Below are positions 24,071-43,033 of a DNA stretch of 64,000 nucleotides, one piece after another. Below the pieces are notes generated by a model. That model did not search any database and was not told the origin of the DNA. It saw only the letters and a program-made list of their open reading frames with translations. The translations under genes were made by a program, and so were the position numbers. Origin of the DNA: a virus; IMG/VR virus record IMGVR_UViG_3300042356_001708, positions 1 through 64,000 of that record. One strand, given 5' to 3'. Each line of letters starts with the position of its first letter. Within the stretch, counting starts at the first letter, position 1.

Positions 24071-24089
24071 TTTGATAAATGGTTTGTCA

Positions 24090-24116
24090 ATAAATACTTC
24101 ATTTTAATGTATTTAT
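24090..24116. promoter_or_regulatory. Back-to-back pair of TATTTAT motifs (24096-24090 minus; 24110-24116 plus)
   Basis: One motif on each coding strand of a divergent gene pair. Confidence 0.6.
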
Positions 24117-24126
24117 CATAAGAAAT

Positions 24127-27100
24127 ATGGCTTACCAAAATATTAATCAATATAACTTTCCAAAATGGTATATGTTGAACAGGTCTGATATAATGGATTT
24201 CTGTTTGGCATCAGATGAACGGGATTATAAAGAAGAAGTGATTTTTTCACCTTATATCATTGGAAACACTGATGGTAACGTTTTGCCCGTCAAAATTGAT
24301 TTAAACAACCCTGATAATAGTGAGTTATTTGTACTTGAGTATGATAACTACAACCCATTCAATATTATAGTTTCATCAAATTATTATAACCCTGATAATT
24401 TAGATTTATCTTGTTTTTCAGGTTTTAGTGCTCTTTGTGATGTTGGATTAACAGGTATTGACAATGGACTTGTTAAGAATATGACAGGTGAAACTGCATA
24501 TATTACAAAGGGTATTAATGACTTTACAAAATTTGATAGGTTATCTTTTGACCGAAGAATGAAATTCTTTCAGGTTACAGGATATACACAACCACCTAAT
24601 ATAAGATTTTCGGGGATACCAAAAAACGATAACTATTCTATTGTTTCATATCAAAAAGATGTTGGGGTTTATCACGAATTATACGGAGGGTTTTATCAAG
24701 GGTTTTATAAACTATATGGGTATGATTATGAAATACTTCCTGATAGACCTCATCACGGGTGGTCTGCAGAATTTTTATTAAGACCGAGGATATGGGATGA
24801 TTATTTTCCATCCTCAGGTGATACAACACTTAATGAAGTATATCCCGATAATGCGGGGATTTTCTTTTATATGGGAGCTAGAGCTGAGAATAAATTTTAT
24901 CATTATGCGTCAGGCTCACCATCAGGATTTACTGCATATACAAGAGTTACCGAAAGTTTAGTATCTACGGGAACAACAGGGACCACAAGTGGCTCAACTG
25001 GAGAAACAACTTGTCTTTTAACTTGCGGTTGTTCAAATAGTGGTAACACACTGTCAAATTGTTTACCTGTTTATCCACCTCAAAATTATATAACTGAAAC
25101 TACACCATGTGGTACCACGCAAATAACTGCTCCTGAATTAAATCCGAGTGGAGATTCATGTTCTAATAATTTCGCAGTTAAATTTAGTGGTGACCCAGGT
25201 AACCCAAGAATATGTGTTAGAGTTTTAAGATTAACCGATGAATGTACTATTGACCAATGTACAAGTGCAAAGACTTATACATCGGGATGTACTGTTCAAG
25301 AATATTGTACACCAAAGGGGATACATTATTTTTGTGAAAATACTGATTACGTTAAATTTGAACATTGGGTTCAGGTTGACGTTGTATTTGAAAGATATAG
25401 AGACATGGATGAGTGTCATCTTTGGTGGTATGGTGGATTAGGAGTCATTACTAACTTTGAATTAACGGCATCAACATATAATCAATCAGTCACATTAATT
25501 CAACCCCCATTTACTCATTTTAATGTTGTAACTTATACGTCAACAACTACAACATATACCGCAACAACAATTGACACCCCATATGGAAGAGAAGTTGTTG
25601 AATTAAATAATAAATGGTTACAACAAAAAGATTATCGTTTAGGTAGATTAAAAATATATGTGAATGGTAGAAGGTTTCATACTTTTGAAAACTTTGAAGA
25701 AGTTATCCCAAGAGCATTAAATACGGAAAGAGAAAAACAAATTGGAGTTCCGTTTAACTTGTCATGGGGTGGAGGTACACAAGGGTTAAGAGAAAACTTA
25801 ACATTTAAAGATTGTCCTGTTAGTTCGGTCACAACCACAACCACTACTTTATTTACTAATTCGGTTGTAACAACAACTACCACAACATTTTACGGTAACA
25901 TTTACCAACAAGACCCTGAGTTGTTTCCTGATAGTGTTTTAAGTGGAACAAGTTTATCGGGATTAAATACAAATATAGTTTTAGAGAAATATTTTGCAGG
26001 AACTTTTGACGGTGGTATATCTCAGTTTAATTATTACATTAAACCAATGACTGCAGATGAGGTTAAACACAATTATCTATTAAATAAAACAAGATATAAT
26101 TTATTTGATTGGGATTGTCCAAATTGTGATGTATTTGTCCCTGAATGTGATTTAAGTGCAATCGTATATGAATACACCACAACTACTACAACAATACCCA
26201 CAACCACAACAACAACTACAAGTATTCCTTGTGATATTAATTATGACTTATTTAATGTTCCATCTGGTACCGAATTAACATTAATTGTTAATATGTATCC
26301 TGGGTCAATTGAGGCGGCCTATAACTTACAATTAAATAATGTTTTAGATTTTGATTTATCAATTTCATTTACTCAAGTTTTAGGTACGATTAGTGGTGAT
26401 AGTATTAATATTGATAACACTATCATAATACCAAGAGGTTCATTTAGTGCGGAAACTACGACAATAATTGATGGGGATTATAACATATTAGATGATACAT
26501 CTGAGATTATTAACTTAGTATGGACACCATATTGGGTAGATTTAGTCATTGGATTTTCATCTGAAACAATATTCAATCTTAATCCTTGTAATCAATACCT
26601 TACAACTGAAGGAGACGATTTCATTGTCGCTGAAGATGGAAGATATATAGTTACAGAAATTGATTTATGTGACCCTTGTGTTGTATTAATTCAAACTGAA
26701 TTTGATGATTATTTAACCACAGAAGAAAATTATATATTAACATCGGAACGTAATCCTTGTTTACCTATCCCAAGTCCGACAATTACTCCAACATCAACAG
26801 TAACACCGACCCCAACTCCGACAATTACTCCAACAATTACTCCAACATCATCAGTAACACCAACACCAACCCCATCAATTACACCGACAATTACCCCAAG
26901 TGCATCTGAAATGCCAATGTATCCTTTAACGTTGTATATACAACCTTTAAGTGGTGGTCAGGCAATTATATTTGATGGGATAACTTACACTGCTGAAACA
27001 ACTGTTAATGTTTATCTTAACACTTTTTATAATATAGAATCAGTTCCAATTCCTGGATATATGTTTGTAGGATGGAACATTTATGGAGGTTCATTCTCAT

Positions 27101-28086
27101 CAACAGGTCAAAGTACAACTGTTGCCATCTCATTAACATCGGGGGCCAATTTAGCCCCATCATACGATGTTGACCCAAATTATGACGCTTTAGAGGGACA
27201 ACTAACAACAAGTTTAGTGAGTTATCAAAATGCCACAGATAATGATTGGGTTATTATTACACAACAAGAATATAATAATATTTTTGGTAATGTCGATGGT
27301 GTAGTTAAAATTGGTAATACTGATGAACAAGTAAACACGAGAGCTGTTGCAACTGGATATGATACTACAACTTTTGGAACAATTGATGCTAGCACCCCTC
27401 TTACGATACCTACAGGTTATTATGTTGTAGGATTTGTTGCGGAGTCTTGGAATCAAAATGGACAGGTTCAACTTGGTTATACAACGAGTTATCATACCGG
27501 TACCCCAACTTATATGGGAAATTCACCAAATGTTATTGGTGGTATGACTATGTTCTACGTTAGAAAAAGACCTAGTGGTGTTGAAGCCGCTCCAGCGTCA
27601 ACTAACTTATATCCAGTTTTAAATTTCTTATCACCCGCTTACCCAAATGCGGTTCCTGACACCTTTGGGTGGACAACAACAAACAATGGAGTTTCTTGGT
27701 TTGAAACGGTATCATCATCGCAGACCGCAAAAATACAAGTTCTACTAACAAACGTAAAATCTTGGCCATCAGCACCACCAAGTTCACCAACTCCAACACC
27801 ATCCCCCACACCAACACTAACTTTAACACCAAATTGTCAACGTAATATTGTGATTCCAACCTTATGGAATGGCGGTACAACTATTAATACAAATCAACTT
27901 ATACTAACACAAACTTCAGAAACTTTACAAATACAAGTAAATGATATTATAACAGATAATAATGGGTCAACTAGTTTTGTAGGAATTGTTTCATCGGATG
28001 GTACATATACTTATGTATTTACAGGTGCAGGTGGTGGGGTTGCGTTTGATTGTCAATTCCCATTAACATTCACAGGACCTTGTTAA
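24127..28086 (+). CDS. Large putative virion protein with Thr/Pro-rich mucin-like linkers and a possible LamG/ConA-like domain
   Basis: LKIYVNG...WGGG..F.GGISQF..Y..P.T..EV..NY pattern is LamG-like; several Tn and (TP)n tracts; Cys-rich segments. Confidence 0.65.
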   Translation: MAYQNINQYNFPKWYMLNRSDIMDFCLASDERDYKEEVIFSPYIIGNTDGNVLPVKIDLNNPDNSELFVLEYDNYNPFNIIVSSNYYNPDNLDLSCFSGFSALCDVGLTGIDNGLVKNMTGETAYITKGINDFTKFDRLSFDRRMKFFQVTGYTQPPNIRFSGIPKNDNYSIVSYQKDVGVYHELYGGFYQGFYKLYGYDYEILPDRPHHGWSAEFLLRPRIWDDYFPSSGDTTLNEVYPDNAGIFFYMGARAENKFYHYASGSPSGFTAYTRVTESLVSTGTTGTTSGSTGETTCLLTCGCSNSGNTLSNCLPVYPPQNYITETTPCGTTQITAPELNPSGDSCSNNFAVKFSGDPGNPRICVRVLRLTDECTIDQCTSAKTYTSGCTVQEYCTPKGIHYFCENTDYVKFEHWVQVDVVFERYRDMDECHLWWYGGLGVITNFELTASTYNQSVTLIQPPFTHFNVVTYTSTTTTYTATTIDTPYGREVVELNNKWLQQKDYRLGRLKIYVNGRRFHTFENFEEVIPRALNTEREKQIGVPFNLSWGGGTQGLRENLTFKDCPVSSVTTTTTTLFTNSVVTTTTTTFYGNIYQQDPELFPDSVLSGTSLSGLNTNIVLEKYFAGTFDGGISQFNYYIKPMTADEVKHNYLLNKTRYNLFDWDCPNCDVFVPECDLSAIVYEYTTTTTTIPTTTTTTTSIPCDINYDLFNVPSGTELTLIVNMYPGSIEAAYNLQLNNVLDFDLSISFTQVLGTISGDSINIDNTIIIPRGSFSAETTTIIDGDYNILDDTSEIINLVWTPYWVDLVIGFSSETIFNLNPCNQYLTTEGDDFIVAEDGRYIVTEIDLCDPCVVLIQTEFDDYLTTEENYILTSERNPCLPIPSPTITPTSTVTPTPTPTITPTITPTSSVTPTPTPSITPTITPSASEMPMYPLTLYIQPLSGGQAIIFDGITYTAETTVNVYLNTFYNIESVPIPGYMFVGWNIYGGSFSSTGQSTTVAISLTSGANLAPSYDVDPNYDALEGQLTTSLVSYQNATDNDWVIITQQEYNNIFGNVDGVVKIGNTDEQVNTRAVATGYDTTTFGTIDASTPLTIPTGYYVVGFVAESWNQNGQVQLGYTTSYHTGTPTYMGNSPNVIGGMTMFYVRKRPSGVEAAPASTNLYPVLNFLSPAYPNAVPDTFGWTTTNNGVSWFETVSSSQTAKIQVLLTNVKSWPSAPPSSPTPTPSPTPTLTLTPNCQRNIVIPTLWNGGTTINTNQLILTQTSETLQIQVNDIITDNNGSTSFVGIVSSDGTYTYVFTGAGGGVAFDCQFPLTFTGPC

Positions 28087-28122
28087 ATTAAAAAATAAAA
28101 GTATTTATATAAAAACTAAAAA

Positions 28123-30318
28123 ATGGCAAACATTAAAATATCTCAACTTCCTGAATTCACAGGGTCAACGGATAATTCTTGGCTAATATTGAATAATTCA
28201 GGGCAAACTGAAACTTTTAAAATAACAAGAGAAAATTTCTTATCAGGTATTACAACTTATACTGAAATCACTTATAGTGAATTATATTCATTGTTTACAG
28301 GTGAAACTTTAACACCTGGTCAATTTTATTTAATGACCGATTTCCAAACTTGTTATGACCAACCTGATTTTAACCAAAGTGGTACTGCAATAATAGGTGA
28401 TAACTATAAAACAGGTAGTACAGAACCAATAGTTGTTTTAGCCACAAGTATTAACTCTCTATCACCTAAAGCGTATTCATTAGAATATCCATTTGATGAT
28501 ATTTCATATGATATAACATTCACTCAAACTGAAATGACGAGTAATCCTGCAAAGGGTAGAATCACTGAAAGAATTGATGACTTTAATAATAGAACCGATT
28601 ATGACCACAGAAATATATTATTTAAAAGGTATAATGGGTATTCATATAATGAAAGTCAACCATTAAGTGGACTTGTTGGTATAAGTGGTATAACAGGAAC
28701 TACGGCTGTTTTATATGGTAATACAGGTACAACGTTTAATTCAAATTTTTCAACAGGGTCACTTGTTGCAGTGACAAATATATTCCCATCAATTTTTGAG
28801 GTTATTTCTGTTGAGAGTAATTCTATAGCAATTATATCAGGTGTCTCAATAAGTAACACTAGTAACTCACCTTACTATTTAGTAATTGATGATGGTATAA
28901 TCAGCTATCGTAAACCTAATGTAAGAGTTAATGAAGTTTTTGAATATACAACATTTGGTGATGCTACATCAATTAACAACTATGTTGGTAACTATGCAAA
29001 TTTATATTCTTGGAATGAAAACCCATTTATCTTAGCAAACAATGTTTTTATTAGTGGTTCATTTATAAATAATACAATTGGTAATGATTCATATAATAAC
29101 ACATTTAATGATGATTGCGATAGTAATCAAATAGGTGATAGTTTTTATAACAACTCAACAAATGATGATTTTGATGGGAATATAATTGGGGATTATTTTA
29201 ATAACAATTATATCACATCCAATTTTAATAATAACAGAATCGGTAGTAATTTTAATAGTAATATTCTAATTGGTGGTTCTTTCTATAGAAATAATATTGG
29301 AAATGAGTTTAATAGTAATGTTTGGACTAATGGTGATTTCCAAAATAATGAAATAGGTAACCAATTTAATAATAATAAAATCTACAACGAGTTTTATAAT
29401 AATGATATTGGTAATGGGTATAATAATAACGAAAGTTATTCAACTTATAATCGTAATTTAATTGGTAATGGTTATAATAATAATACTATATATTCTCAGT
29501 TTTACGAAAATGAAATCGGTCAAATTTTCAATAATAATACTATCTCAACCTTATTAGATTCCGGGAATTATGATTTTACAGGAAATAGAATTGGTAATGA
29601 TTTTTATAATAACACAATTAAAAATGATTTTGTAAGTAACGACATTTTAAATGATTTTTATAATAATAGTCTGTATTCGGTCTTCAGGAAAAATAGTGTC
29701 TTAAATGGGTTTGAAGGAAATACAATCGGAGATTCTGGTAACACTATAACCTTTGAAAACAATCAAATTATGAATACCTTCAAAGGTAATAATGTACAGG
29801 GAGACTTTTGGAGTAATTACATTAAAACAAATTTTAAAGCAAACCAAACATTTGCCGAATTTGGTTATAACAATGTCGGTTATAGTTTTTTTGCAAATAA
29901 TATGAGTGGACAAACAATCAGTAACAATATCGGAGATTATTTTGAATCTAATAATTGTTACGGTTCATTTTCATATAACACAATAGGGACTAGTTTTTCT
30001 AGTAATGATGTCCAAGATGGTTTTGGTTTCGGTGGAGGTACATACAGAGGAAATGTGATTGGTAATAATTTCAATAGTAATGACATCGGAGAATATTTTT
30101 ACGATAATACTATTGGAGATAATTTTACTAATAATACTATTGTAGATTATTTCCAAATGAACAGAATATGTAATAGTGTTATCTCTATTGATTTTTCAGA
30201 ATCAACTCACGTATACGGATTTTATAATTGCGAAATCTTTACAGGGTCAGGTGGTGGACAAAGACTATCATATTACGACTCAAGTGACGTACTAAACATA
30301 ACAAACATAACAGCATAA
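28123..30318 (+). CDS. Tail fibre/spike-like protein with Asn-rich parallel beta-helix repeats
   Basis: N-terminal MANIKISQLP; many N.IG..F..N repeats over the C-terminal ~430 aa. Confidence 0.7.
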   Translation: MANIKISQLPEFTGSTDNSWLILNNSGQTETFKITRENFLSGITTYTEITYSELYSLFTGETLTPGQFYLMTDFQTCYDQPDFNQSGTAIIGDNYKTGSTEPIVVLATSINSLSPKAYSLEYPFDDISYDITFTQTEMTSNPAKGRITERIDDFNNRTDYDHRNILFKRYNGYSYNESQPLSGLVGISGITGTTAVLYGNTGTTFNSNFSTGSLVAVTNIFPSIFEVISVESNSIAIISGVSISNTSNSPYYLVIDDGIISYRKPNVRVNEVFEYTTFGDATSINNYVGNYANLYSWNENPFILANNVFISGSFINNTIGNDSYNNTFNDDCDSNQIGDSFYNNSTNDDFDGNIIGDYFNNNYITSNFNNNRIGSNFNSNILIGGSFYRNNIGNEFNSNVWTNGDFQNNEIGNQFNNNKIYNEFYNNDIGNGYNNNESYSTYNRNLIGNGYNNNTIYSQFYENEIGQIFNNNTISTLLDSGNYDFTGNRIGNDFYNNTIKNDFVSNDILNDFYNNSLYSVFRKNSVLNGFEGNTIGDSGNTITFENNQIMNTFKGNNVQGDFWSNYIKTNFKANQTFAEFGYNNVGYSFFANNMSGQTISNNIGDYFESNNCYGSFSYNTIGTSFSSNDVQDGFGFGGGTYRGNVIGNNFNSNDIGEYFYDNTIGDNFTNNTIVDYFQMNRICNSVISIDFSESTHVYGFYNCEIFTGSGGGQRLSYYDSSDVLNITNITA

Positions 30319-30320
30319 AA

Positions 30321-30971
30321 ATGGCAACAAAATACATAATAGATAATTTATCAGGTCAAACTATAGTTGGTAACCTTACAATTAATGGTAATATGACCGT
30401 AACAGGGATTACAAATAATAGAACTTATAAAGCATTATTAACTCAAACACCTATCATAGTTACAAATACCATAAATAATTTATATGGAAAATTTATTATA
30501 GGTGAAACTTATACAATTACAGACTATGTTTCAAATGATGATTTTAGTAATATTGCCGACGTACAAAGTGGTGTAATAAATCAAACTGGATGTGTGTTTA
30601 TTGCCACGGGGGAGACCCCAAGTTATTGGGAAGATTTCTCAGAAATTACTTCGTCAGGTAATCTTTGTGTTTCAGTTCAGGAAAATACTTTGGGGTTTGA
30701 AATTAATTGGGGGAAGGTTTCTCCTGGAGATTACTATACTGGGGGAACTAACCCAATATCTGTAGACACATTCCCAAGAAATAATACAATTGTAAATACA
30801 CAATCAAAATATATAGAACCTATTGACGAATTTATAATTCCTTTTGTTTCATTAGCAAATATTAATAATCCTGATAGTTTTATTGTATTATATAATAAAG
30901 GAGTGACTGATTTTACTAATGTTTTAGATTCATTATTTTATACACCAATAGAAATAGTCATTAAGGACTAA
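30321..30971 (+). CDS. Putative tail fibre-associated protein
   Basis: GNLTINGNMTVTG beta-strand motif, TYKALLTQ, FYTPIEI; follows the fibre gene. Confidence 0.55.
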   Translation: MATKYIIDNLSGQTIVGNLTINGNMTVTGITNNRTYKALLTQTPIIVTNTINNLYGKFIIGETYTITDYVSNDDFSNIADVQSGVINQTGCVFIATGETPSYWEDFSEITSSGNLCVSVQENTLGFEINWGKVSPGDYYTGGTNPISVDTFPRNNTIVNTQSKYIEPIDEFIIPFVSLANINNPDSFIVLYNKGVTDFTNVLDSLFYTPIEIVIKD

Positions 30972-31000
30972 TAATTAATTTAAAACAATTAAATAATATT

Positions 31001-31249
31001 ATGAGAATAAATATTTTAACAGAGAATGATAAGGTAGAACAAGTTAGAGAAGCTTGGATAAATAAAAATGTAATGAAAATACCCTGCTCCCCAACAGGAG
31101 ATAAACCAGCAACACATTGGTTTTGTACAATGGCAGGGTCTGAGGAACAAATGATGAAGATTTACAATAAAAAAAATTTATCTATAATGGAGTTAGAAAT
31201 TGGACCAAAAGAATTTCTTAACAAATGGGGATTGAAAATCATAAGGTGA
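31001..31249 (+). CDS. Hypothetical protein
   Basis: 82-aa ORF. Confidence 0.65.
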   Translation: MRINILTENDKVEQVREAWINKNVMKIPCSPTGDKPATHWFCTMAGSEEQMMKIYNKKNLSIMELEIGPKEFLNKWGLKIIR

Positions 31250-31854
31250 TACGAAATTTTATAACTAAAGAAGAAGTTATAAAAATTTTAGATTGGGTAA
31301 ATCTACTAGTATCAAATAAAGGAAAACCAAATCATCATTTATCTGAAATTACAAAAGATTTAAATGGTAAATCTACTATTATAGATATTTCAAACAATAG
31401 TCTCACAAACTATATTACAAATTTTCAATCAGTTAGTCAGGTTCTAAAAATAGAAGTTCCTGACTTTATTAATAGGATAATTGACAGAATATCACATACT
31501 ATTAATATTCCGAAGGACAATATATTTTTACAAGTTGTTGATATGAACTCGGGGGGTAAGATAACACCCCATTATGACGCATCAATAGACGGATATATTA
31601 ATTATAAATGTAACATTAGTGTTTTGTCGGAAGATTATCAAATTTTTATAGGTGAAGACACACTTAATATTTCTGAGACTGATTTATATTGTTTTGAAGC
31701 CTCATTATATAAACACTGGACAAATGAATTTAAATCACGACGAGTATTTTTAAGTTTTGGGTTTATTTTACCTTATGAGAATTTAGGTAGAGATGAAAAC
31801 GACCCAAGAGTTAGATTAAGTCAAAGAATATATAAGTATTTCCAAAAGGTATAA
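31225..31854 (+). CDS. 2OG-Fe(II) oxygenase (prolyl-hydroxylase-like fold)
   Basis: IRNFIT.EE start, HxD (PHYD), distal His (YKHW) and Arg (SRRVFLSFGF). Confidence 0.75.
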   Translation: MGIENHKVIRNFITKEEVIKILDWVNLLVSNKGKPNHHLSEITKDLNGKSTIIDISNNSLTNYITNFQSVSQVLKIEVPDFINRIIDRISHTINIPKDNIFLQVVDMNSGGKITPHYDASIDGYINYKCNISVLSEDYQIFIGEDTLNISETDLYCFEASLYKHWTNEFKSRRVFLSFGFILPYENLGRDENDPRVRLSQRIYKYFQKV

Positions 31855-31881
31855 ATCATTTGTTTGGATATTTATTTTTAA

Positions 31882-33669: not shown

Positions 33670-33672
33670 TAA

Positions 33673-35058
33673 ATGTCACAATACGTAGAAATATCCGATA
33701 GTAACTATAGTGGTCAGACTGCATTAGTGACATTTAATGCCTTAGAGGGGGGAGTTTATGATTTAGGAGAACAGGTTGTTCCTTTTACATTCTATGGAGA
33801 TTCAATATCACCTGGATTTTCGGTGTATGGTGAGTATGTTTTATATTATGTCAGATTCTATAAAACATGTTCCATAAGTGTTTTACCAACCACAACTACA
33901 ACCACTATTCCAATCACAACTACTACAACAATACCTGTAACAACCACTACGACATTAGAACCGATTGTTTGTGATATTGATTATGAATTAAATTTTGTCC
34001 CACAAAATACTGAAGTTGAGTTAACCTCAGTGGTTAGTCCAGGTTCTGTTATCGTTGAATACAATTTAACTTCAAATAATGAATTAGAGTATGATTTAGA
34101 AGTTTCATTCACCCAAAGATTGGGGGTGTTAATTGGGGATGATATTATAATAAATTCATCTGTCACAATTTATAAAGGAAACCTTACAGGAACTACGTTA
34201 ATAAATCTTGATTATGATTATAACAATTTAAACGATACGTCAGAATTTACTAATTTATTGTTTAATCCATTAGATATTAATATTGGGTTTATATTTTCTT
34301 CAGATACCGTTTTTACTCCCCAAGTAACCTTAACTCCTACACCATCAGTTACTGAAACTAGCACTCCTACTCCTACACCATCAGTTACTGAAACTAGCAC
34401 TCCTACTCCTACACCATCAGTTACTGAAACTAGTACACCCACACCTACTCCATCAGTTACTGAAACTAGTACTCCTACACCTACTCCATCAGTTACTGAA
34501 ACTAGTACACCTACACCTACCCCATCAGTTACTGAAACTAGTACACCTACACCTACCCCATCAGTTACTGAAACTAGTACGCCCACTCCTACACCTACCC
34601 CATCAGTTACTGAAACTAGTACGCCCACTCCTACACCTACCCCATCAGTTACTGAAACTAGTACGCCCACTCCTACACCTACCCCATCAGTTACTGAAAC
34701 TAGTACACCTACACCTACCCCATCAGCAAGTGAAATACCTATAAGTGATAACTTTACTTGGTCATTTGACGACCAAACAGGTTCTGAATTAAATACATAT
34801 GTAATCTTGCTGAATGGTTCTACAGTCGTTAATACAAACCGTAGTGGTGCAGGTTCATTTAAAGTTTCGGATAAAAATGGCATTAGAATTATTTTAACAA
34901 TTAATGATGGGGTTTCAGCAACATCCCAACTTGATGAAGACGGTAGTTTAATATATGATGAAACTTCTGGAAGAATCCCTGAAACTTTAGATAGTGGGGT
35001 TATAAGTATAGTTGGTGGGTCAATTTATGTTGCTACCGGAATTATAACTACCAAATAA
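33673..35058 (+). CDS. Mucin-like putative virion protein with Thr runs and PSVTETSTPT repeats
   Basis: Shared N-terminal module, three Thr runs, a domain duplicated in 24127..28086, ten repeat units. Confidence 0.7.
   Translation: MSQYVEISDSNYSGQTALVTFNALEGGVYDLGEQVVPFTFYGDSISPGFSVYGEYVLYYVRFYKTCSISVLPTTTTTTIPITTTTTIPVTTTTTLEPIVCDIDYELNFVPQNTEVELTSVVSPGSVIVEYNLTSNNELEYDLEVSFTQRLGVLIGDDIIINSSVTIYKGNLTGTTLINLDYDYNNLNDTSEFTNLLFNPLDINIGFIFSSDTVFTPQVTLTPTPSVTETSTPTPTPSVTETSTPTPTPSVTETSTPTPTPSVTETSTPTPTPSVTETSTPTPTPSVTETSTPTPTPSVTETSTPTPTPTPSVTETSTPTPTPTPSVTETSTPTPTPTPSVTETSTPTPTPSASEIPISDNFTWSFDDQTGSELNTYVILLNGSTVVNTNRSGAGSFKVSDKNGIRIILTINDGVSATSQLDEDGSLIYDETSGRIPETLDSGVISIVGGSIYVATGIITTK
34333..34728 (+). 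repeat. Coding tandem repeat: 10 units of 36 bp (then 42 bp) encoding SVTETS(TP)3-4
   Basis: Core catcagttactgaaactag recurs at 36-nt then 42-nt spacing. Confidence 0.95.
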
Positions 35059-35071
35059 AATATATAATAAT

Positions 35072-35578
35072 ATGGGAACGATAATTACATTAAAGAGTCA
35101 AAATTTTTCAGGTGATGTTGCAAATATTACTTTCCATCCTTTAAGCGGGGGAACTTCTGTTAACTTAGGAAATCATTTAATACCATATAGTTTTGAATCG
35201 GACTATTATTTAGGGACTTATGACCTTTTTTTCTTGGATAAAAACCAAAATTGTGAACTCATAATTGAGCCCACAACAACAACTACGACAGAACCACCAA
35301 CCTTCACTTATTTCACCAGTGCTAGAAGTTGTGAGGTCTGCACTCCAACAGAATGTAGTCAATTTTTATCTCAAAGCACGGGTGGTTATATGTTTAATTT
35401 TATAACAACAGAACCTATTACATTACCTATCTTGTTAACAATTGACGGATGTTGTATGTTTATTGACGTAACAATGGAAATTATAGTTCCTGGATACTCA
35501 ACATTTAATGTTGACCAAACTCAAATACAATCAGTTAATGGGACAATTTCTGAAGCATGTCCCCAATGTAATAATTAA
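35072..35578 (+). CDS. Small protein: shared N-terminal module, Thr linker, Cys-rich C-terminus
   Basis: LKSQNFSGDVANITF is nearly identical to the start of 31882; EPTTTTTTEPP linker; CEVC and CPQC. Confidence 0.7.
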   Translation: MGTIITLKSQNFSGDVANITFHPLSGGTSVNLGNHLIPYSFESDYYLGTYDLFFLDKNQNCELIIEPTTTTTTEPPTFTYFTSARSCEVCTPTECSQFLSQSTGGYMFNFITTEPITLPILLTIDGCCMFIDVTMEIIVPGYSTFNVDQTQIQSVNGTISEACPQCNN

Positions 35579-35632
35579 AAAATAATATTTATATTTTACT
35601 ACTTTAGTTTAAGTTTTTAAAAAACTATAGTT

Positions 35633-36883
35633 ATGAAAATTTTTATACAGATTGCGTCATATCGTGACCCGCAACTTATTCCAACAATTAAATCTGCTAT
35701 TGAAAACGCCAAAAACCCAAAGAATCTAAGATTCGGTATTGCTAGACAATTTCATCCCGACGATAAGTTTGATGATTTGTCAGAATATAAAAAAGATAGA
35801 CGATTCAGAATTTTAGACATACCCCACAATGAATCTCAAGGAGCTTGTTGGGCGAGAAACTTAATCCAACAACTTTATAAAAAAGAAGAATATACACTTC
35901 AAATTGATTCTCATATGAGATTTGAAAAGAATTGGGATGAGATGTGTATTAATATGATTACCGACTTACAGGCTAAAGGTCATGAAAAACCTTTATTAAC
36001 GGGATATGTTCCATCATTTGACCCTGATAACGACCCATCATCTCGTGTTAAAGAACCTTGGAGAATGGTGTTTGATAGGTTTATTCCTGAAGGAGCAATC
36101 TTCTTTTTACCTGAGGTAATACCTGGTCATAGAAATGTAAAAAGACCTGTTAATGCAAGATTTTATTCCGCACATTTTTGTTTCACGTTAGGTGAGTTCG
36201 CAAAAGAAGTCCAACATGACCCATTATACTATTTTCACGGGGAAGAGATTTCAATTGCGGTTAGAGCGTATACTCACGGATATGATTTATTCCACCCTCA
36301 TAAAATTGTTTGTTGGCACGAATACACAAGAAAGGGTAGAACAAAACAATGGGATGATGATAAAGCATGGGTAGAAAAAAATACCAAGTCACATAAAAGA
36401 AATAGACAATTATTCTCAATGGATGGTGAAATTTATAATCCTGAAGAATTTGGAACTTTTGGTTTTGGAACTGAAAGAACCTTAAAGGACTATGAAAAAT
36501 ATGCAGGTATTAGTTTCGGTAAGAGAGCAATTCAACAATACACAATCAATAAACAAGACCCACCAAATCCGTATAATTATGAAACTGAAGAAGAGTGGGA
36601 AAACAGTTTTAGTAGAGTGTTTAAACATTGTATTGATGTTGGATTTTCACAAGTACCTGAAACTGATTATGACTTTTGGGTGGTTGCATTCCATAATGAA
36701 AATAATGAAACCATTTTCCGTAAAGATGCCGACATCAATGAAATTAACAGAATGAAAATGGACCCAGATGGGTATTGTAAAGTATGGAGAGAATTCCAAA
36801 CTGCTGACCAACCAAAGTATTGGGTTGTTTGGCCATACTCAAAATCTAAAGGGTGGTGTGATAGGATAACTGGAAATTTATAA
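35633..36883 (+). CDS. GT60-family polypeptide/hydroxyproline alpha-GlcNAc transferase (Gnt1-like, Pfam GlcNAc type)
   Basis: IFIQIASYRDP, GACWAR, LQIDSHMRF...WD, LLTGY, FYSAHFCF, EV.HDP..YF.GEE....R.YT.GYDLF.P, HEY.R are the hallmark motifs of Dictyostelium Skp1 Gnt1-type enzymes. Confidence 0.85.
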   Translation: MKIFIQIASYRDPQLIPTIKSAIENAKNPKNLRFGIARQFHPDDKFDDLSEYKKDRRFRILDIPHNESQGACWARNLIQQLYKKEEYTLQIDSHMRFEKNWDEMCINMITDLQAKGHEKPLLTGYVPSFDPDNDPSSRVKEPWRMVFDRFIPEGAIFFLPEVIPGHRNVKRPVNARFYSAHFCFTLGEFAKEVQHDPLYYFHGEEISIAVRAYTHGYDLFHPHKIVCWHEYTRKGRTKQWDDDKAWVEKNTKSHKRNRQLFSMDGEIYNPEEFGTFGFGTERTLKDYEKYAGISFGKRAIQQYTINKQDPPNPYNYETEEEWENSFSRVFKHCIDVGFSQVPETDYDFWVVAFHNENNETIFRKDADINEINRMKMDPDGYCKVWREFQTADQPKYWVVWPYSKSKGWCDRITGNL

Positions 36884-36886
36884 AAA

Positions 36887-38935
36887 ATGGAATACATTTC
36901 ACAATTAGGTCAAGATAAGTTTATTGATGAATTTTTTGAAAAAAAACAAAACGGTTTTTTTATTGATATTGGTGCAAATGAAGGTGTTGAAATTTCAAAC
37001 ACTTATTTTTTGGAAAAAAATAGAAATTGGAAAGGAATATGTATTGAACCATTACCTATTGAATTTGAAAAACTTACTAAAAATCGGACATCAATTAATT
37101 TGAATTTATGTGTATCAGATTTTAATGGGGAAACTGATTTTACATACATTGAAGGATTTTCAAACATGCTTTCAGGAATTTCAGATAAGTACAATCAAAA
37201 TCATAAAGAGAGGATATTACGTGAAGTAGACCACTATGGGGGTAAAATACATAATATTAATGTACCAGTTAGAACTTTAGAAAGTATATTAGATGAATAT
37301 AATGTAACAGAAGTTGATTTTTGTTCAATAGATACTGAAGGTTCTGAGCTTAGTATTGTTAAGTCAATAAACTTTGATAAAACATTTATCAAAGTTTTTA
37401 TAATTGAAAACAATTACCAAGAAAGTACAATTGAAGATTTTTTAAAAACTAAAGGATTCTTTTTATATAAAAAAATTGAGTGGGATGATGTTTTTGTAAA
37501 TGAAAAATTAATAAAGAAAAAATATATGAAACATTTTTATAATACAATAGATAGTGAAGTTTGGTTTGACTATCAAAATGTATATAGTTACATGGTTAAA
37601 AAATTTCCATCAGGTAGTCATTTTGTAGAAGTTGGTTCTTGGAAGGGAATGAGCTCTTGTTACATGGCGGTGGAAATAATTAACTCTGAAAAAGAAATTA
37701 AATTTGATTGTGTTGATTTTTGGGAATACACACCAACCCAAAAGGATATCCATAGAAGTAGTTTTAATAATTTATATGAAATTTTTAAAAAGAATACTAG
37801 TCCGGTTTCTCACGTTATAAATGACATAAAGATGTTATCGCATGAGGCGTCAAAATTGTACTCTGATGGGACATTAGATTTTATTTATATTGATGGCGCT
37901 CACGATTATGACAATGTTAAATTAGATATTGAATCATGGTTTCCAAAATTAAAAATTGGGGGAATTATTGCAGGTCATAGTTATACTCACCCTCCCGTAA
38001 AAACAGCGGTTGATGAATTTTTTGGAATAAAAAATATTAAATTTATACATAATTCTTGGTCATTTGAGAAAACAAAATCTGAAATTGATAATAGAGAAGA
38101 AATTATTGAAGAAATAATTATTCCATTTGATTATGAAGAAGAATTAAAAAAAGTTAAAAATAACATATTAGTATCTGCGATATCTTTTGTTAACACAGTT
38201 AAGAAAGGGTCTGAAATATACACAACCTTTGCAAAAAGGTTAATTAAAGATGTTTTAACTAAAACCCCATACGACATAATGGTATCAACAAACGCCCCTG
38301 AATATTTTGAAGAGTACAGTGGTATTGATAGGGTTTTTATTAAACACGAACCATTATATTATCATAAAACTCATGTTGGGGCATTCAATCAATTATTAAA
38401 ATTTTACGCAATAAAGGAAATCAATAAAAAATATGATTGGGTGTTGTATTTGGATTGTGACGCCGGACTTACTGAAAAAGTTAATGTTACAGACATTGAC
38501 AATTATCTATCTTATTTGGACTCAATAAATTTTGATATGTCCGCATTAAGAACACAGGCAACCTATGAAGAATCGGAACGAGAGTATATTGCAACAAAAG
38601 ATAAAAAGTCATTTCCAGTCCCACTGTTTAATAAAAAATTTATGTTTTACGGATTTAATGACAAATGGAGAGGTGCTAAATTACCCAGTGAACATATTTT
38701 ACTAATAAAAAATAATGAAAAATTACCAGTTATGGCACACCATTTTGAAAATTTTTGTTCATGGTTTGAAACCCAAGAGCCAAATAATATTATAACCTTT
38801 GATATGGAAGCCTTTGAGATTGGTGTGTCGGCACATTTGGCGGGATTTAATATGGATGAAATGACATGGGGAAGACAATGTGAAATATTCAAAGTTGGGT
38901 TTAACTATAACAATTGGGAAAAAATTAAAGTCTAA
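36887..38935 (+). CDS. Fusion: FkbM methyltransferase, Methyltransf_24, GT-A glycosyltransferase
   Basis: SQLGQD, FIDIGANEG..SNT, SIDTEGSE; EVGSWKG.S, YIDGAHDY; C-terminal YDWVLYLDCD (DxD). Confidence 0.8.
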   Translation: MEYISQLGQDKFIDEFFEKKQNGFFIDIGANEGVEISNTYFLEKNRNWKGICIEPLPIEFEKLTKNRTSINLNLCVSDFNGETDFTYIEGFSNMLSGISDKYNQNHKERILREVDHYGGKIHNINVPVRTLESILDEYNVTEVDFCSIDTEGSELSIVKSINFDKTFIKVFIIENNYQESTIEDFLKTKGFFLYKKIEWDDVFVNEKLIKKKYMKHFYNTIDSEVWFDYQNVYSYMVKKFPSGSHFVEVGSWKGMSSCYMAVEIINSEKEIKFDCVDFWEYTPTQKDIHRSSFNNLYEIFKKNTSPVSHVINDIKMLSHEASKLYSDGTLDFIYIDGAHDYDNVKLDIESWFPKLKIGGIIAGHSYTHPPVKTAVDEFFGIKNIKFIHNSWSFEKTKSEIDNREEIIEEIIIPFDYEEELKKVKNNILVSAISFVNTVKKGSEIYTTFAKRLIKDVLTKTPYDIMVSTNAPEYFEEYSGIDRVFIKHEPLYYHKTHVGAFNQLLKFYAIKEINKKYDWVLYLDCDAGLTEKVNVTDIDNYLSYLDSINFDMSALRTQATYEESEREYIATKDKKSFPVPLFNKKFMFYGFNDKWRGAKLPSEHILLIKNNEKLPVMAHHFENFCSWFETQEPNNIITFDMEAFEIGVSAHLAGFNMDEMTWGRQCEIFKVGFNYNNWEKIKV

Positions 38936-39852
38936 TGAAAAAAATTAAAATTTGTTCTAATTGGGATACTCCCCAAAATATGACTAAAAGACTCTTGGAC
39001 CAATTCAAAACCTCAGATGAGGATATTTCTAATATTGAATTTGTTTATGATAATTCTTATGACTTAATAATATTCAGTAATTATATAACTGAAGATGTTA
39101 TTGAAAATAAAGATGCTGTAATATTTTTTCATGAACCAACATGGACTGGAAATCACCAAAAAAATTTTTTAGGGTTTAAAAATTTAAAAATTTTTGGACA
39201 TGATAAAAATAAATATAATTCAGAAAGCGAAGTTATTGAAACCCCATCACTCATGTTTTATGGAGGTAGAGGACCTCAATCAGAAGGATGGGAATTTTGG
39301 AATTTTAAAAATTTAACAAGTAAGGAGTTTAAAAAAAATAAAAAAATATCATCAATTGTTTCTAAATTGGGTAAAAATAATCACGGATATCCAAATGAAT
39401 GCTTGTATATTGATAGATATAATTTAATTTATAGATTAAGTGAAAATTGTAATTTCATTGATTTTTTTGGATGGGAAGGGGATAAACCAAATTTAAAAGG
39501 GTTTATAAACGAAAAAAAAGAAGGAATTGTTGATTATAAATTTTCAATATGTATTGAAAACTCTAATGAAAAAAATTATATATCTGAAAAATTTTACGAT
39601 TGTATTTTAACGGATACCATCCCAATCTATTTTGGTTGTAAAAATATTAAAGAAATATGGTCATACAACGGGTACATTTTATTAGATAGTATTACCGATT
39701 ATCAAAAAATTGAAGATATACTTAATTACATTCATACAAATTGCGATTACCTTTATGATGTTATGTTACCTGAATTAAAAAAAATCAAAGAAGAGTATTT
39801 TAATAAAAATAATTTACTAAAGAAAATAAATGATATTGCCGGTAACATATGA
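38935..39852 (+). CDS. GT10-like (alpha-1,3-fucosyltransferase-type) glycosyltransferase
   Basis: YKFSICIENS...YISEKFYDC....TIPIYFG matches the GT10 fucosyltransferase motif. Confidence 0.8.
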   Translation: MKKIKICSNWDTPQNMTKRLLDQFKTSDEDISNIEFVYDNSYDLIIFSNYITEDVIENKDAVIFFHEPTWTGNHQKNFLGFKNLKIFGHDKNKYNSESEVIETPSLMFYGGRGPQSEGWEFWNFKNLTSKEFKKNKKISSIVSKLGKNNHGYPNECLYIDRYNLIYRLSENCNFIDFFGWEGDKPNLKGFINEKKEGIVDYKFSICIENSNEKNYISEKFYDCILTDTIPIYFGCKNIKEIWSYNGYILLDSITDYQKIEDILNYIHTNCDYLYDVMLPELKKIKEEYFNKNNLLKKINDIAGNI

Positions 39853-40652
39853 GATTTAAAAGACCTATAACTCAAATAAGAATACATCATAGGAACTGTG
39901 GTTTTTTTTCAGATTTTTTAGTTATGTTATCCAACATTTATTATGTTAGGAATGAGTTATTTAATGATTTTCATATTGATTGGAGAACCTCACTATACTC
40001 ATCAAATAATGAGAACATATATGATAAATATTTTTATCAACACAATGATGAAAACTGTAATTACAATAATGTTATAACTAATTTAACAGGGTATAATGCA
40101 ATATTTGCAAATCATGTATTACATGAAGATGTGAGTGAAATTGAAATATATCGGTCATTATCATATGGTAATTTTTTAATGTATAATTACGGTCTACTTG
40201 AAGGTGAATTTTTTAAAAATTTTGATAGAAATTACTTCGGTGACCAAAAAATTTTAGGTATTCACAGACGGGGTACCGACCACGGACATCATGGTCAATT
40301 AATGTCTGACATAACATACTTAAATGAAATTAATAGAGAATTCAAAACAAATAATTACGATAAAATTTTTTTAATTACAGACCAATTAAGTTCGTTTGAA
40401 TTCTTTAAAAAAGAACTTGGTAACTCATTAATTACCACCGACTCAACCATGTCGGATAGCTCATGTGGTGTTCATTACAGACACGATGTAAGTCCTGAAA
40501 AAATCGCCTACGATGCATTAAGAGATTCTTATTTGTTGTCATTAACTGATTATAAATTAGTGACAAGAAGTAACCTATCAACATTTGCTTTATTATGTAA
40601 TTTACAAAAAGATAATTTTAGACTAATTGATAAACATATTTTTTACCGATAA
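39849..40652 (+). CDS. NodZ/GT23-like fucosyltransferase-fold protein
   Basis: CGFFS, LGIHRRGTD, KIFLITD, D.YLLS..D......SN.S. Confidence 0.7.
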   Translation: MRFKRPITQIRIHHRNCGFFSDFLVMLSNIYYVRNELFNDFHIDWRTSLYSSNNENIYDKYFYQHNDENCNYNNVITNLTGYNAIFANHVLHEDVSEIEIYRSLSYGNFLMYNYGLLEGEFFKNFDRNYFGDQKILGIHRRGTDHGHHGQLMSDITYLNEINREFKTNNYDKIFLITDQLSSFEFFKKELGNSLITTDSTMSDSSCGVHYRHDVSPEKIAYDALRDSYLLSLTDYKLVTRSNLSTFALLCNLQKDNFRLIDKHIFYR

Positions 40653-40663
40653 AAAATAATAAG

Positions 40664-43009
40664 ATGAAAAATTATAAAAATATATTTGACACAATATATA
40701 AAACTTGGGGATTTGGGGGCGGAGAGAGCCGTTCAGGGCCCGGAAGTACTTTACAGGAAACTGAAGTAATACGAGAAAAAATTAAAAATTTAGTTAAGTA
40801 TAAACGAATTAAATCTGTCGTTGATTTACCTTGCGGCGATTTTAATTGGATGAAAGAAATTGTTGATTCTTTTGACTCGTACCACGGAGGGGACATTGTG
40901 GGCGAATTAATTGTTTCAAATATTGAGAAATATAAAACTAATAAAGTCCAATTTTCAGTAATTGATGTTCTTAATGATGAAATACCTAAAGCCGATTTAT
41001 TAATAGTAAGGGATATTATTGGGCATTACCCAATTGAGGATGGTAAAAAGATAGTTGAAAAAATCATTAATTCAGGGTGTAAATACCTATTATCAACCAC
41101 TTGGTATAATGTTTTAGACAGTAAATATTATTTAAAACACGAAAATAGTGATGTAGAATACGGTAGATTTTATCCCGTAAATTTAATGAGTGAGCCGTTT
41201 AATTTACCTGAACCTGAATTAATTATTGAGGAAGATGTTGTAGTTGATGGGTATAATTTAGGTAATCGTAAAACACTTGGGTTTTGGAATTTAGAAGATT
41301 TAAAAAATAGTAAGTCAAAGAACGAGATTCTTACATTAGTTACAGGTCTGTGGGATTTAAATCGGGATTCTTTATCTGAAGGATGGGCTAGACCATTTGA
41401 GGAACATTACATTAGAAAATTCAGAGAGTTACTTAAAACTCCACATAATTTAATAATTTATGGGGATAGAAATCTTGAGAAAATTGTTAAAGAGTTAAGG
41501 AAAGATTATAATACACAATTTATTTACCGAGATTTGGAATGGTTTAAAACCAACGACTATTTTGATAAAATACAAAAAATAAGAACTGATAAAAATTGGA
41601 CTGGTTTATCAGGATGGCTCGGGGACTCAACTCAAGCTAAACTTGAAATGTACAACCCGTTGGTCATGTCAAAAATGTTTTTATTAAATGATGCTAAATT
41701 ATTAAGTAAATTTAATACTAAAAACATTTATTGGGTTGATGCGGGAATAACTAATACTGTCAGTATTGATTATTTTACAGATGAATCAATACTAAATAAA
41801 CTACCTGAAAAATTCTCAAAATTTTCATTTGTTTGTTTTCCTTACGATGCGGTTAATGAGATACACGGGTTCAAATACGACGCGATAAATAGATATTCTC
41901 AAAATAAAGTTAATAAAGTTGCGAGAGGGGGATTTTTTGGAGGAAATGTTGACACTATTAATGAAGTTAATTCAATCTATTATAGATTATTAATTGAAAC
42001 GTTAAACGAGGGTTTAATGGGAACTGAAGAATCAATCTTCACTATTATGATATATCGTTATAATAAACTGATTGAGTACTCCGAAATTGATTCAAACGGA
42101 TTGATTTATAAGTTTTTTGAAGATTTGAAGAATGACTCAATTGAAGTTAAAACTGAAACTACTACTACATTTTCACCCATACAAAAAATGTCTAAAGATT
42201 TGAAAGTCGGTTTATACGTCCTTACTTTTAATAGTCCGAAACAATTCAAAACTTTAATTGACTCAATGATACAATATGATAGTGACTTTATTAACAAATC
42301 TGAAAAGTATCTATTGGATAATTCTACGGACAAAACTACCAAAGTTGTGTATGATAAATTATGTGAGGAATATAATTTTACTTACATATCTAAAGGGGAG
42401 AATTTAGGTATTTGTGGTGGTAGACAGTACATTGCCGAACATTTTGATAAGACAAAATTAGATGCCTATTATTTCTTTGAGGACGATATGTTTTTTTACC
42501 CAAAAGAAAATGAGAAATGTAAAAACGGATTTGGTAGAATGGTAAAAAATTTATTTATAAAATCCAATGATATCTTGTCAATGAATTCTTTTGATTTCCT
42601 TAAATTAAATTTTTCAGAGTTTTATGGAGATAATACAACGCAATGGGCGTGGTATAATGTTCCACAATCTGTAAGGGAAAAATTTTGGCCAAATTATTCG
42701 CAGTTACCAAAAATGGGATTAGACCCAAACGCTCCTAAAACAAAATTTAATAATATTATGTGTTATCAGGATGTACCATATGCTGATGGTGAGATATATT
42801 ATTGTAATTGGCCTCAATTGGTTAGTCGTGAAGGTAATAAAAAAATGTTTTTGGATACTACTTGGGCATACCCACACGAACAGACGTGGATGTCACATAT
42901 GTACCAACTAACTAAAGAAGGTAAATTAAATCCTGGAATACTTTTATTAACACCTACGGAACATAATAGATTTGACCACTATGAAAGAGAATTAAGAAAA
43001 GAATCTTAA
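40664..43009 (+). CDS. Fusion: SAM methyltransferase, HtrL/YibB-like domain, GT-A domain
   Basis: ESRSGPGS, DLPCGDFNWM; TLVTGLWDL, SKMFLL.DA, WVDAG, GGFFGG, GTEE; NLGICGGR, YFFEDDM. Confidence 0.7.
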   Translation: MKNYKNIFDTIYKTWGFGGGESRSGPGSTLQETEVIREKIKNLVKYKRIKSVVDLPCGDFNWMKEIVDSFDSYHGGDIVGELIVSNIEKYKTNKVQFSVIDVLNDEIPKADLLIVRDIIGHYPIEDGKKIVEKIINSGCKYLLSTTWYNVLDSKYYLKHENSDVEYGRFYPVNLMSEPFNLPEPELIIEEDVVVDGYNLGNRKTLGFWNLEDLKNSKSKNEILTLVTGLWDLNRDSLSEGWARPFEEHYIRKFRELLKTPHNLIIYGDRNLEKIVKELRKDYNTQFIYRDLEWFKTNDYFDKIQKIRTDKNWTGLSGWLGDSTQAKLEMYNPLVMSKMFLLNDAKLLSKFNTKNIYWVDAGITNTVSIDYFTDESILNKLPEKFSKFSFVCFPYDAVNEIHGFKYDAINRYSQNKVNKVARGGFFGGNVDTINEVNSIYYRLLIETLNEGLMGTEESIFTIMIYRYNKLIEYSEIDSNGLIYKFFEDLKNDSIEVKTETTTTFSPIQKMSKDLKVGLYVLTFNSPKQFKTLIDSMIQYDSDFINKSEKYLLDNSTDKTTKVVYDKLCEEYNFTYISKGENLGICGGRQYIAEHFDKTKLDAYYFFEDDMFFYPKENEKCKNGFGRMVKNLFIKSNDILSMNSFDFLKLNFSEFYGDNTTQWAWYNVPQSVREKFWPNYSQLPKMGLDPNAPKTKFNNIMCYQDVPYADGEIYYCNWPQLVSREGNKKMFLDTTWAYPHEQTWMSHMYQLTKEGKLNPGILLLTPTEHNRFDHYERELRKES

Positions 43010-43033
43010 TTGAATTTCGTAGTATTTATTGGT

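Follow-up and report, generated by a model that had tools for sequence, protein, structure and literature searches.

A candidate GT60-initiated, mucin-type O-glycosylation system encoded by a jumbo phage

Why would a bacteriophage carry, side by side, genes for proteins crossed by Thr runs and Thr/Pro repeats and genes for a suite of soluble sugar-processing enzymes? This question is raised by the IMG/VR virus record IMGVR_UViG_3300042356_001708 (103,560 bp; CheckV completeness 35%), whose first 64 kb constitute the stretch analysed here (64,000 nucleotides, hereafter the window). In this window, positions 24127-43414 form a single co-oriented block on the plus strand, with the gene coordinates and shared orientation already given in a preliminary description that proposed a phage pathway of mucin-type O-glycosylation. 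The reading favoured here, with a probability of roughly 0.6, is that the block encodes a cytoplasmic, GT60-initiated, mucin-type O-glycosylation of the phage's own Thr/Pro linkers; the phage would thereby probably coat proteins of its own particle with sugar. What the sequence data show is the family, motifs, fold and solubility of the enzymes, the gene linkage and the variability of the glycan cassette. What stands of the earlier proposal is that an intact-looking glycosyltransferase (GT) of family GT60 heads a soluble glycan operon behind proteins carrying Thr/Pro-rich tracts, and that this pairing recurs in related phages; the link to a hydroxylase and the virion location of the block proteins are not supported.

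The proposed initiator is encoded at 35633-36883 on the plus strand (genes are named below after their first position, and all genes of the block lie on this strand). It is a soluble, polypeptide-glycosyltransferase-like protein whose assignment to GT60, suggested beforehand, is borne out by a match to PF11397 of 246.1 bits (E 9.2e-73), far above the cut-off of 21; the match takes in positions 2-43 and 96-350 of the 352-position profile. It carries a DxH motif, D92-S93-H94, at amino acids (aa) 92-94 (nucleotides (nt) 35906-35914, in the context IDSHMRF), and a C-terminal His, H229, in the context WHEY. Both D92-x-H94 and H229 are invariant among 47 homologues sharing 36-97% identity, and the enzyme is apparently catalytically intact. 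Among GT-A enzymes, DxH in place of DxD is specific to GT27 and GT60, two families that group together and both carry out polypeptide Ser/Thr O-glycosylation, GT60 being confined to prokaryotes and protists (PMC7185993).

For the AlphaFold model of 35633 (predicted local distance difference test, pLDDT, 95.8), the nearest solved folds are those of the mucin-initiating polypeptide N-acetylgalactosaminyltransferases (ppGalNAc-transferases). The best Foldseek matches are all polypeptide GalNAc-transferases (E 8e-11 to 6e-9), and the top 29 Protein Data Bank (PDB) entries found with VIA-align are all GT27 ppGalNAc-transferases from animals or protists (Z 19.3-22.6), the next GT-A folds outside GT27 reaching a Z of at most 18.0. 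The GT27 alignments span 262-315 residues of a model range of 1 to about 330, at 10-17% identity and with a root-mean-square deviation of 3.3-3.8 Å for 28 of the 29 entries (6.0 Å for 6h0b); a PDB search by sequence returned no match to 35633. A confidently predicted, beta-rich C-terminal domain of about 85 aa (aa 331-416, nt 36626-36883) lies outside the Pfam model and nearly all the structural alignments. By analogy with the lectin domain of ppGalNAc-transferases, which is placed likewise, this domain could be a substrate- or glycan-binding module.

What would such an enzyme modify? The four proteins singled out in the preliminary description (24127, 31882, 33673 and 35072) each contain Thr runs or (TP)n tracts, as claimed. 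The candidate acceptor 24127 (24127-28086; 1319 aa) has five runs of four to seven Thr (T4-T7) and (TP)n stretches at aa 876-930 and 1211-1240; its N-terminal ~670 aa are kept in 28 related loci, and it found no match in Pfam or PHROG, nor its conserved half in a tblastn search of cultured phages. Protein 31882 (31882-33669) consists of an N-terminal 65-aa module, called here module B, a T7 run at aa 67, a middle domain and a papain-family (C1) peptidase (phrog_16701, E 4e-57). In 33673 (33673-35058), three T5-T6 runs come after module B, then TSTPTPTPSVTE-type repeats over about 140 aa and, at the C-terminus, a further domain; the repeat unit is 12 aa, encoded by a DNA array of 36 bp x 10.4 copies at 34336-34726, and this protein is the most mucin-like candidate acceptor. 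Finally, 35072 (35072-35578) joins module B and a T6 run at aa 68 to a Cys-rich domain of 100 aa. In the 103-kb record, 12 runs of at least five Thr are observed, whereas 0.42 would be expected when residues are shuffled inside each protein (2 at most in 200 shuffles), and the equally frequent residues S, N, I and L form 0-1 runs of such length; therefore, the Thr homopolymers are not a by-product of composition.

These proteins are built in a modular way. Module B comprises the ~65 aa common to the N-termini of 31882, 33673 and 35072 (31882-32080, 33673-33890 and 35072-35275, respectively) and ends in a Cys, with the Thr run directly after it. Another module, A, is a 126-aa domain ending in CC that closes the block (43034-43414) and is conserved in 57 loci; in relatives, it is an N-terminal anchor, behind which come PT repeats or Thr runs and, further on, variable domains. 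In one relative, L022, it is joined directly to the papain-type peptidase of 31882, with no Thr/Pro tract between. Neither module has a match in Pfam, PHROG or PDB (module A was also compared with PDB as a profile), and the payloads behind the anchors look interchangeable across relatives. As modules A and B stand around the operon, modular proteins with tract linkers are encoded on either side of the glycan genes. No transmembrane segment or signal peptide was found in any of the block enzymes and tract proteins, and the enzymes are predicted to be soluble and cytoplasmic. Seven of the nine block proteins scanned against PHROGs have no match, the exceptions being 31882 (the peptidase family) and 33673 (weakly, a family of unknown function).

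The association of GT60 with tracts was examined in related phages. A scan of IMG/VR found 107 GT60 loci, 80 of which were retrieved at 64-78% identity and fall into 50 clusters at 95% identity; open reading frames (ORFs) of at least 100 aa were scored as tract-bearing if a 20-residue window held at least 65% T+P. Among the 50 clusters, the ORF at position -1 of GT60 bears a tract in 27 of 45 cases (60%); the frequency is 25% at -2, 22% at -3 and 4% (27 of 652) over the remaining positions. The pairing of GT60 with tract proteins is thus far more frequent than the background in related phages, and it is met again in jumbo phages of Xanthomonas and Stenotrophomonas. Once their tracts are masked, the upstream proteins fall into nine unrelated families, which indicates that the conserved property is the tract and not the protein. 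Their domains include a concanavalin-like lectin, a beta-propeller, a BspA-type (leucine-rich) repeat and CBM5/12, that is, binding domains of the kind expected on a particle surface.

Downstream of GT60, a second conserved element is found. Residues 223-781 of 40664 (40664-43009), which correspond to its HtrL_YibB and GT2-like domains, have homologues in 67 of 82 loci. The interval between GT60 and this HtrL-GT2 gene holds 0-10 genes and, in total, 154 ORFs of 60 families, nearly all of them glycan-tailoring. GT10 is the commonest Pfam assignment in the interval (10), followed by CmcI-type (9), Methyltransf_24 (9), GT25 (8), GT2-like (7), FkbM (5), GT7 (5), GT34 (4) and PLOD-type GT (4); GT11, sulfotransferases, UDP-galactopyranose mutase (GLF) and a carbamoyltransferase also occur. 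The layout, as predicted from these families, is that of a locus for a conserved core plus a strain-specific outer glycan, of which the window is one variant, with two methyltransferase proteins, a GT10-like enzyme and a FUT8/NodZ-like enzyme.

The enzymes of this variant had been named in the preliminary description with unequal success. For 36887 (36887-38935), announced as a fusion of an FkbM enzyme, a methyltransferase and a GT, the FkbM methyltransferase and Methyltransf_24 parts are recovered, and the 313-aa C-terminal part, where the GT was to be expected, has no match. The GT10 family (alpha-1,3-fucosyltransferases) is recognised in 38935 (38935-39852), as foreseen, through its C-terminal catalytic domain (49.1 bits, cut-off 23.9). 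Protein 39849 (39849-40652), described as GT23/NodZ, matches no Pfam profile and no PDB sequence. However, its neighbours by ESM Atlas features carry NodZ, FUT8_N_cat or O-FucT in 10-18% of members, one cluster being 96% FUT8_N_cat, and its predicted model superposes on theirs, also predicted, with template modelling (TM) scores of 0.81-0.84; a GT-B protein of the NodZ/FUT8/O-FucT/GT11 kind is a lead. As to 40664, presented as a methyltransferase-HtrL-GT fusion, HtrL_YibB is above its cut-off, whereas the GT2-like domain and the O-methyltransferase-like N-terminus (weak) fall below theirs. That the glycan is fucosylated and methyl-capped is no more than a fair guess from these family names.

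The pathway could work as follows, the donor sugar, the acceptor residue, the composition of the glycan, the virion location of the block proteins and the biological role being what we infer. Soluble 35633 would first move a sugar, by family precedent alpha-GlcNAc, from its UDP-sugar donor to Thr (possibly Ser or hydroxyproline) within the (TP)n linkers and Thr runs. Extension of the glycan would then fall to 40664, the conserved double enzyme (HtrL+GT2), and strain-variable transferases and methyltransferases would finish it, here the FkbM/S-adenosylmethionine methyltransferases, the GT10-like and the FUT8/NodZ-like enzymes. The acceptors would be modular proteins in which a Thr/Pro linker joins an anchor to a payload, for instance a peptidase or a lectin-like or Cys-rich domain, with an insertion in the tail sheath as an additional acceptor. 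Once glycosylated, the linkers would be stiffened, protected against proteases and varied in their surface chemistry.

The preliminary description regarded the four block proteins as virion substrates. This is not supported: the sole tract found in a certain, multi-copy virion protein is that of the tail sheath (gene 53105-56461, plus strand; 1118 aa). There, a Thr/Pro insertion at aa 291-332 (53975-54100) has an NPC...CY frame, made of a Thr run, N/D-P-C, TPxP, a Thr run and x-C-Y. Of 80 sheath homologues sharing 59-66% identity, 55 show this frame and, at that place, a window in which T+P make up at least 65%, and about 13 shorter homologues (~1060 aa) lack the entire insertion. The two Cys of the insertion could form a disulfide-closed loop after release. 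The three informative contigs with a tract-bearing sheath all have GT60 (3/3, too few and fragmentary); of the contigs whose sheath is devoid of the tract, one has GT60 and one has none at the syntenic site or across its 89 kb. The co-occurrence of sheath tract and GT60 is suggestive.

A short motif also connects the block with structural genes. The heptamer TATTTAT lies, co-oriented, 8-50 nt upstream of 22 of 79 genes, against 0-7 genes for seven control A/T heptamers, in test windows covering 1.6% of strand positions. The genes concerned, mostly structural, include those of the sheath, tube and hub and large downstream structural genes (which have no match in PHROGs), and also 24127, 28123, 31882, GT60 and 43034. 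On the plus strand, this promoter-like motif occupies 35586-35592 ahead of GT60, 24110-24116 before 24127, 28102-28108 before 28123 and 43023-43029 before 43034; further sites are at 53066-53072, 57402-57408 and 59033-59039. It is probably a late-type promoter element of this phage, different from the T4 late promoter element, TATAAATA. Its sharing points to a joint transcription of the structural genes with those of acceptors and enzymes, at a time that we infer.

The site without its cassette is seen in the relative G005, an 89-kb syntenic contig (30% of the genome). In it, the homologue of 24127 directly adjoins the gene of the family B DNA polymerase (PolB); neither GT60 nor HtrL-GT2 is present at the site, which also lacks the cassette, the tract genes and module A, and the sheath has no insertion. 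PolB is 96% identical among G000, G004 and G005, whereas the flanking genes share 30-75%. The stretch that separates PolB from the 24127 homologue varies in length between 0 and about 15 kb; this is a recombination hot spot beside a recently exchanged polymerase gene (PolB of G005 at 53634-56429). Elsewhere, on the minus strand, the window has a second sugar cluster (11832-18866) with GT2, GT2_5+GT2, GT92 and Methyltransf_24 genes, mixed with PhoH and dUTPase. A 12-gene insertion lies at the position of this cluster in G004 (16207-25117). In G005 (31859-43948) the cluster is enlarged by 16 genes, including a GDP-mannose 4,6-dehydratase, epimerases, a UDP-GlcNAc 2-epimerase, a DegT aminotransferase, GT4, GT2 and a flippase-type match (Polysacc_synt_C). 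These nucleotide-sugar genes and the flippase-type match suggest that phages of this clade may also handle non-protein glycans.

Several points weigh against an O-glycosylation of the phage's own linkers. Glycosylation in this phage clade is predicted from genes and models, and many proteins that bear no glycan also have PT linkers. In the block, the four tract proteins received no structural-protein annotation in Pfam and PHROG searches. The counts given above come from 80 mutually related loci and are not independent events. No nucleotide-sugar gene, for example for GDP-fucose, was found in the 103-kb record. Furthermore, the 24127 homologue of G005 retains a PT tract, the only one on this contig, and the relative G004, with GT60 as well as a tract protein built on module A, has no insertion in its sheath; tracts and cassette, as compared here, are coupled loosely, not strictly. 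The preliminary description had taken tracts kept in the absence of the GT cluster as a sign against its proposal, and G005 shows this in part, with a PT tract and no cassette at the site of a contig that covers 30% of the genome. It follows that tracts must also work as linkers in their own right. Lastly, HtrL and GT25 are families named from lipopolysaccharide (LPS) synthesis.

This last point leads to a first alternative, in which the cassette serves, in the course of infection, to make or modify a glycan other than on protein (for instance the LPS core, a polysaccharide of the host envelope or a soluble glycoconjugate) and the tract genes are neighbours that merely share an accessory hot spot. 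Not only HtrL_YibB and GT25 but also GT2 take their names from LPS or polysaccharide synthesis, and the second GT cluster on the minus strand includes, in G005, a Polysacc_synt_C match and full nucleotide-sugar pathways. The retention of the G005 tract without the cassette fits this alternative as well, and the site, where 0-10 genes are swapped, is clearly a hot spot. However, all block enzymes are soluble, and no lipid-carrier transferase, flippase or polymerase is found in the block; the family and fold of 35633 are polypeptide-directed; the tract enrichment peaks at -1 instead of extending across the hot spot; and the TATTTAT motif is common to structural genes. A non-protein glycan as the product is thus unlikely.

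A second alternative keeps a protein as the substrate of GT60 but another one, either a host or phage regulator or a Skp1-like hydroxyproline site, the tracts being plain flexible linkers. It bears on the hydroxylase step of the preliminary description, which placed the 2-oxoglutarate (2OG)-Fe(II) oxygenase 31225 in the pathway. The gene (31225-31854; 209 aa) lies within the block, and its product is, by fold, such an oxygenase, as stated: although no significant Pfam match and no PDB sequence match were obtained, its AlphaFold model (pLDDT 82.5) is a double-stranded beta-helix with an HxD...H iron triad and a basic residue for 2OG binding, H116-x-D118, H164 and R172/R173 being invariant. However, its Foldseek matches (E ~1e-7, probability 1.00) are the AlkB homologues ALKBH5 and ABH2 and also PHD2, and the fold resembles AlkB nucleic-acid demethylases at least as well as the prolyl hydroxylase PHD2. 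Furthermore, of 80 loci only one has a homologue no more than 10 kb from GT60, and none is found in G001, a 98%-complete, GT60-positive relative, in which two PF13640 genes lie about 200 kb from GT60. The hydroxylase step is thus not established, and a Skp1-like, hydroxylase-first route is unlikely as a general design.

The hydroxyproline route stays alive for some relatives because of GT60-P4H fusions. Giant metagenomic GT60 relatives of 1300-2460 aa (P0242, P0243, P0245 and P0252) contain 3-4 GT60 domains, and 3 of 5 scanned multi-GT60 proteins are fused to a P4H-type 2OG-FeII_Oxy_3 domain, 2 of these also to AhpC (peroxiredoxin); a one-chain machine that hydroxylates and then glycosylates is possible. 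These fusions, the oxygenase within the block, the two PF13640 genes of G001 and the tract without cassette of G005 speak for another acceptor. Against it, beside the rarity and the AlkB-like fold of 31225, a single regulatory site needs no hypervariable multi-enzyme cassette, and the pairing with tract proteins of nine families, with its enrichment at -1, favours the tracts. Another protein acceptor therefore appears improbable. As the hydroxylase link fails in the clade and pure Thr runs are the commonest tract, direct modification of Thr is favoured over hydroxyproline, perhaps by two to one.

A third alternative, the hypermodification of phage DNA with sugars against restriction, could draw on the glycosylated hydroxymethyl-cytosine of T4-like phages, on the diverse phage GT-A enzymes that decorate DNA (bioRxiv 10.1101/2023.12.21.572611), on the DNA polymerase gene adjoining the block and on the similarity of 31225 to nucleic-acid dioxygenases. 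It is very unlikely: no ThyA-family hydroxymethylase was found in the record, and neither ThyA-family nor Tet/JBP genes in G001 (the Tet/JBP search had no positive control), which leaves no evident route to glycosylated DNA bases, while the GT60 fold is 4 Z units nearer to ppGalNAc-transferases than to TarS/TarP-like enzymes, and the methyl-, sulfo- and carbamoyl-transferases, together with as many as 10 transferases, point to a long glycan, which the sugars known from DNA are not.

How does a GT60-initiated glycosylation of Thr/Pro linkers compare with known systems? Mucin-type initiation is regarded as a eukaryotic trait. Among protist GT60 enzymes, Gnt1 of Dictyostelium and Toxoplasma puts alpha-GlcNAc on a hydroxyproline of Skp1, and the Golgi polypeptide alpha-GlcNAc-transferases of Dictyostelium and Trypanosoma cruzi act on Thr of mucin-like domains. 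The phage enzyme shares with them the Pfam/CAZy family, DxH and the C-terminal His; Gnt1 is soluble too, and the candidate Thr/Pro-rich acceptors beside the phage enzyme recall those of the Golgi enzymes. It differs by its phage or bacterial coding, the lack of an evident coupled prolyl hydroxylase, the extra beta domain of ~85 aa and the hypervariable cassette. It probably also differs by the absence of Skp1, a protein that bacteria and phages are not known to have (no search aimed at it was made). With the GT27 ppGalNAc-transferases, 35633 has in common the best structural match over the whole catalytic domain, the DxH metal site and the putative use of Thr/Ser/Pro-rich tracts, but GT27 enzymes sit in the Golgi as type II membrane proteins and carry a lectin domain of the ricin type, whereas 35633 is soluble, has an unassigned C-terminal domain and shares only 10-17% identity with them.

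To our knowledge, glycosylation of phage-particle proteins is documented in few groups only, mainly mycobacteriophages. In these, virion proteins are glycosylated in the host cytoplasm by transferases that the phage itself encodes (Freeman et al. 2023, cited in PMC12619734); unlike the tracts considered here, the glycans lie at the C-termini of capsid and tail-tube subunits, and neither GT60 nor mucin-like tracts are reported. Outside phages, chlorovirus PBCV-1 glycosylates its capsid with virus-encoded cytoplasmic enzymes, with no reliance on the endoplasmic reticulum or the Golgi, and likewise has multidomain transferase/methyltransferase enzymes and methylated sugars (PMC9614988). It differs as a eukaryotic giant virus with atypical N-linked glycans on its major capsid protein and another initiating enzyme.

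The closest parallel is found in cultured phages. Only four of them have GT60 homologues, at 45-49% identity: Xanthomonas phages XacN1 and Xoo-sp13 and Stenotrophomonas phages CM1 and RAS14. In XacN1 and Xoo-sp13, GT60 (ORF334 of XacN1) is followed by a carbamoyltransferase, two small genes and a 546-aa protein (ORF330 of XacN1), homologous to residues 223-781 of 40664 with 41% identity. A few genes away, a 3313-aa protein with PSPTPTPTTTP-type tracts adjoins baseplate wedge genes. The bracket formed by GT60 and HtrL-GT2 around a small cassette, with a giant PT-tract protein nearby, is thus shared with the window, although the host belongs to another phylum and the cassette holds a carbamoyltransferase. 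XacN1 virions are reported to display two glycoprotein bands by periodate-Schiff staining, for which its authors propose two glycosyltransferases as the source, naming no GT family, acceptors or sites (PMC5852040). One of these two proteins is the GT60 homologue. The view of the preliminary description that no GT60 phage pathway was known has therefore to be corrected: the XacN1 work had already tied stained virion glycoproteins to glycosyltransferases including a GT60 homologue, with the family unnamed. A literature search pairing GT60 with phage returned no relevant paper. Hydrolytic enzymes are also packaged in XacN1 virions (PMC5852040), which gives a precedent for enzyme payloads. That a phage glycosylates its own particle proteins is already known, but the literature searched gives no description of a GT60/mucin-type form that combines modular linker proteins and a swappable cassette.

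GT60 relatives extend far beyond these phages. An exhaustive search (E at most 1e-3) gave 4688 clusters at 50% identity, found on thousands of jumbo-phage contigs and on at least 568 bacterial genome contigs (Bacteroidota, Gemmatimonadota, Verrucomicrobiota, Acidobacteriota and Burkholderiaceae). In bacteria, the link to tracts is weaker, with 5 of 62 at -1, 7 of 54 at +3 (where one lineage of Burkholderiaceae encodes (PT)n proteins) and about 1% at other, distant positions. It is an even bet that GT60 and HtrL-GT2 form the core of a widespread prokaryotic and phage system, cytoplasmic and mucin-type, which would act on anchor-linker-payload virion proteins and the tail sheath and, through a hypervariable, O-antigen-like cassette, produce a strain-specific glycocalyx. 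If so, abundant freshwater and soil jumbo phages would bear a variable sugar coat affecting adsorption, protease resistance, aggregation, grazing and antibody recognition, and the glycosylation of Thr/Pro tracts in the GT27/GT60 manner would go far back in prokaryotes. The swappable cassettes would also offer ready-made soluble enzymes with which to build defined O-glycans on linker peptides in the bacterial cytoplasm. As XacN1 is cultured, the idea is directly testable.

The phage that carries the block is, by its gene content, a T4-like jumbo myovirus, as indicated by genes for a gp23-type capsid, tail sheath, tail tube, baseplate hub and family B DNA polymerase (PolB at 43501-46296), the tube and hub genes being recognised in the record. 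The gp23, sheath, tube and hub genes exclude a giant eukaryotic virus. Close relatives attain 295-320 kb, and the G+C content of the window is about 30%. The host is likely a member of the Bacteroidota; the capsid protein is closest to those of Flavobacterium and Microcystis phages, and the nearest GT60 genes of bacterial assemblies are in Saprospiraceae, Lewinellaceae and Chitinophagaceae bins. Between the tract proteins of the block lie two tract-free genes of the plus strand (28123-30971; 731 and 216 aa), with function unassigned. On the minus strand, the gene at 47790-49421 fuses an Fe/Mn superoxide dismutase domain (aa 37-226) to an extension of about 300 aa without assignment. Finally, the major capsid protein (987-2852; 621 aa; E 6e-72) has its gp23-type matches in two pieces with 53-61% coverage, which points to an apparent large insertion or extension.

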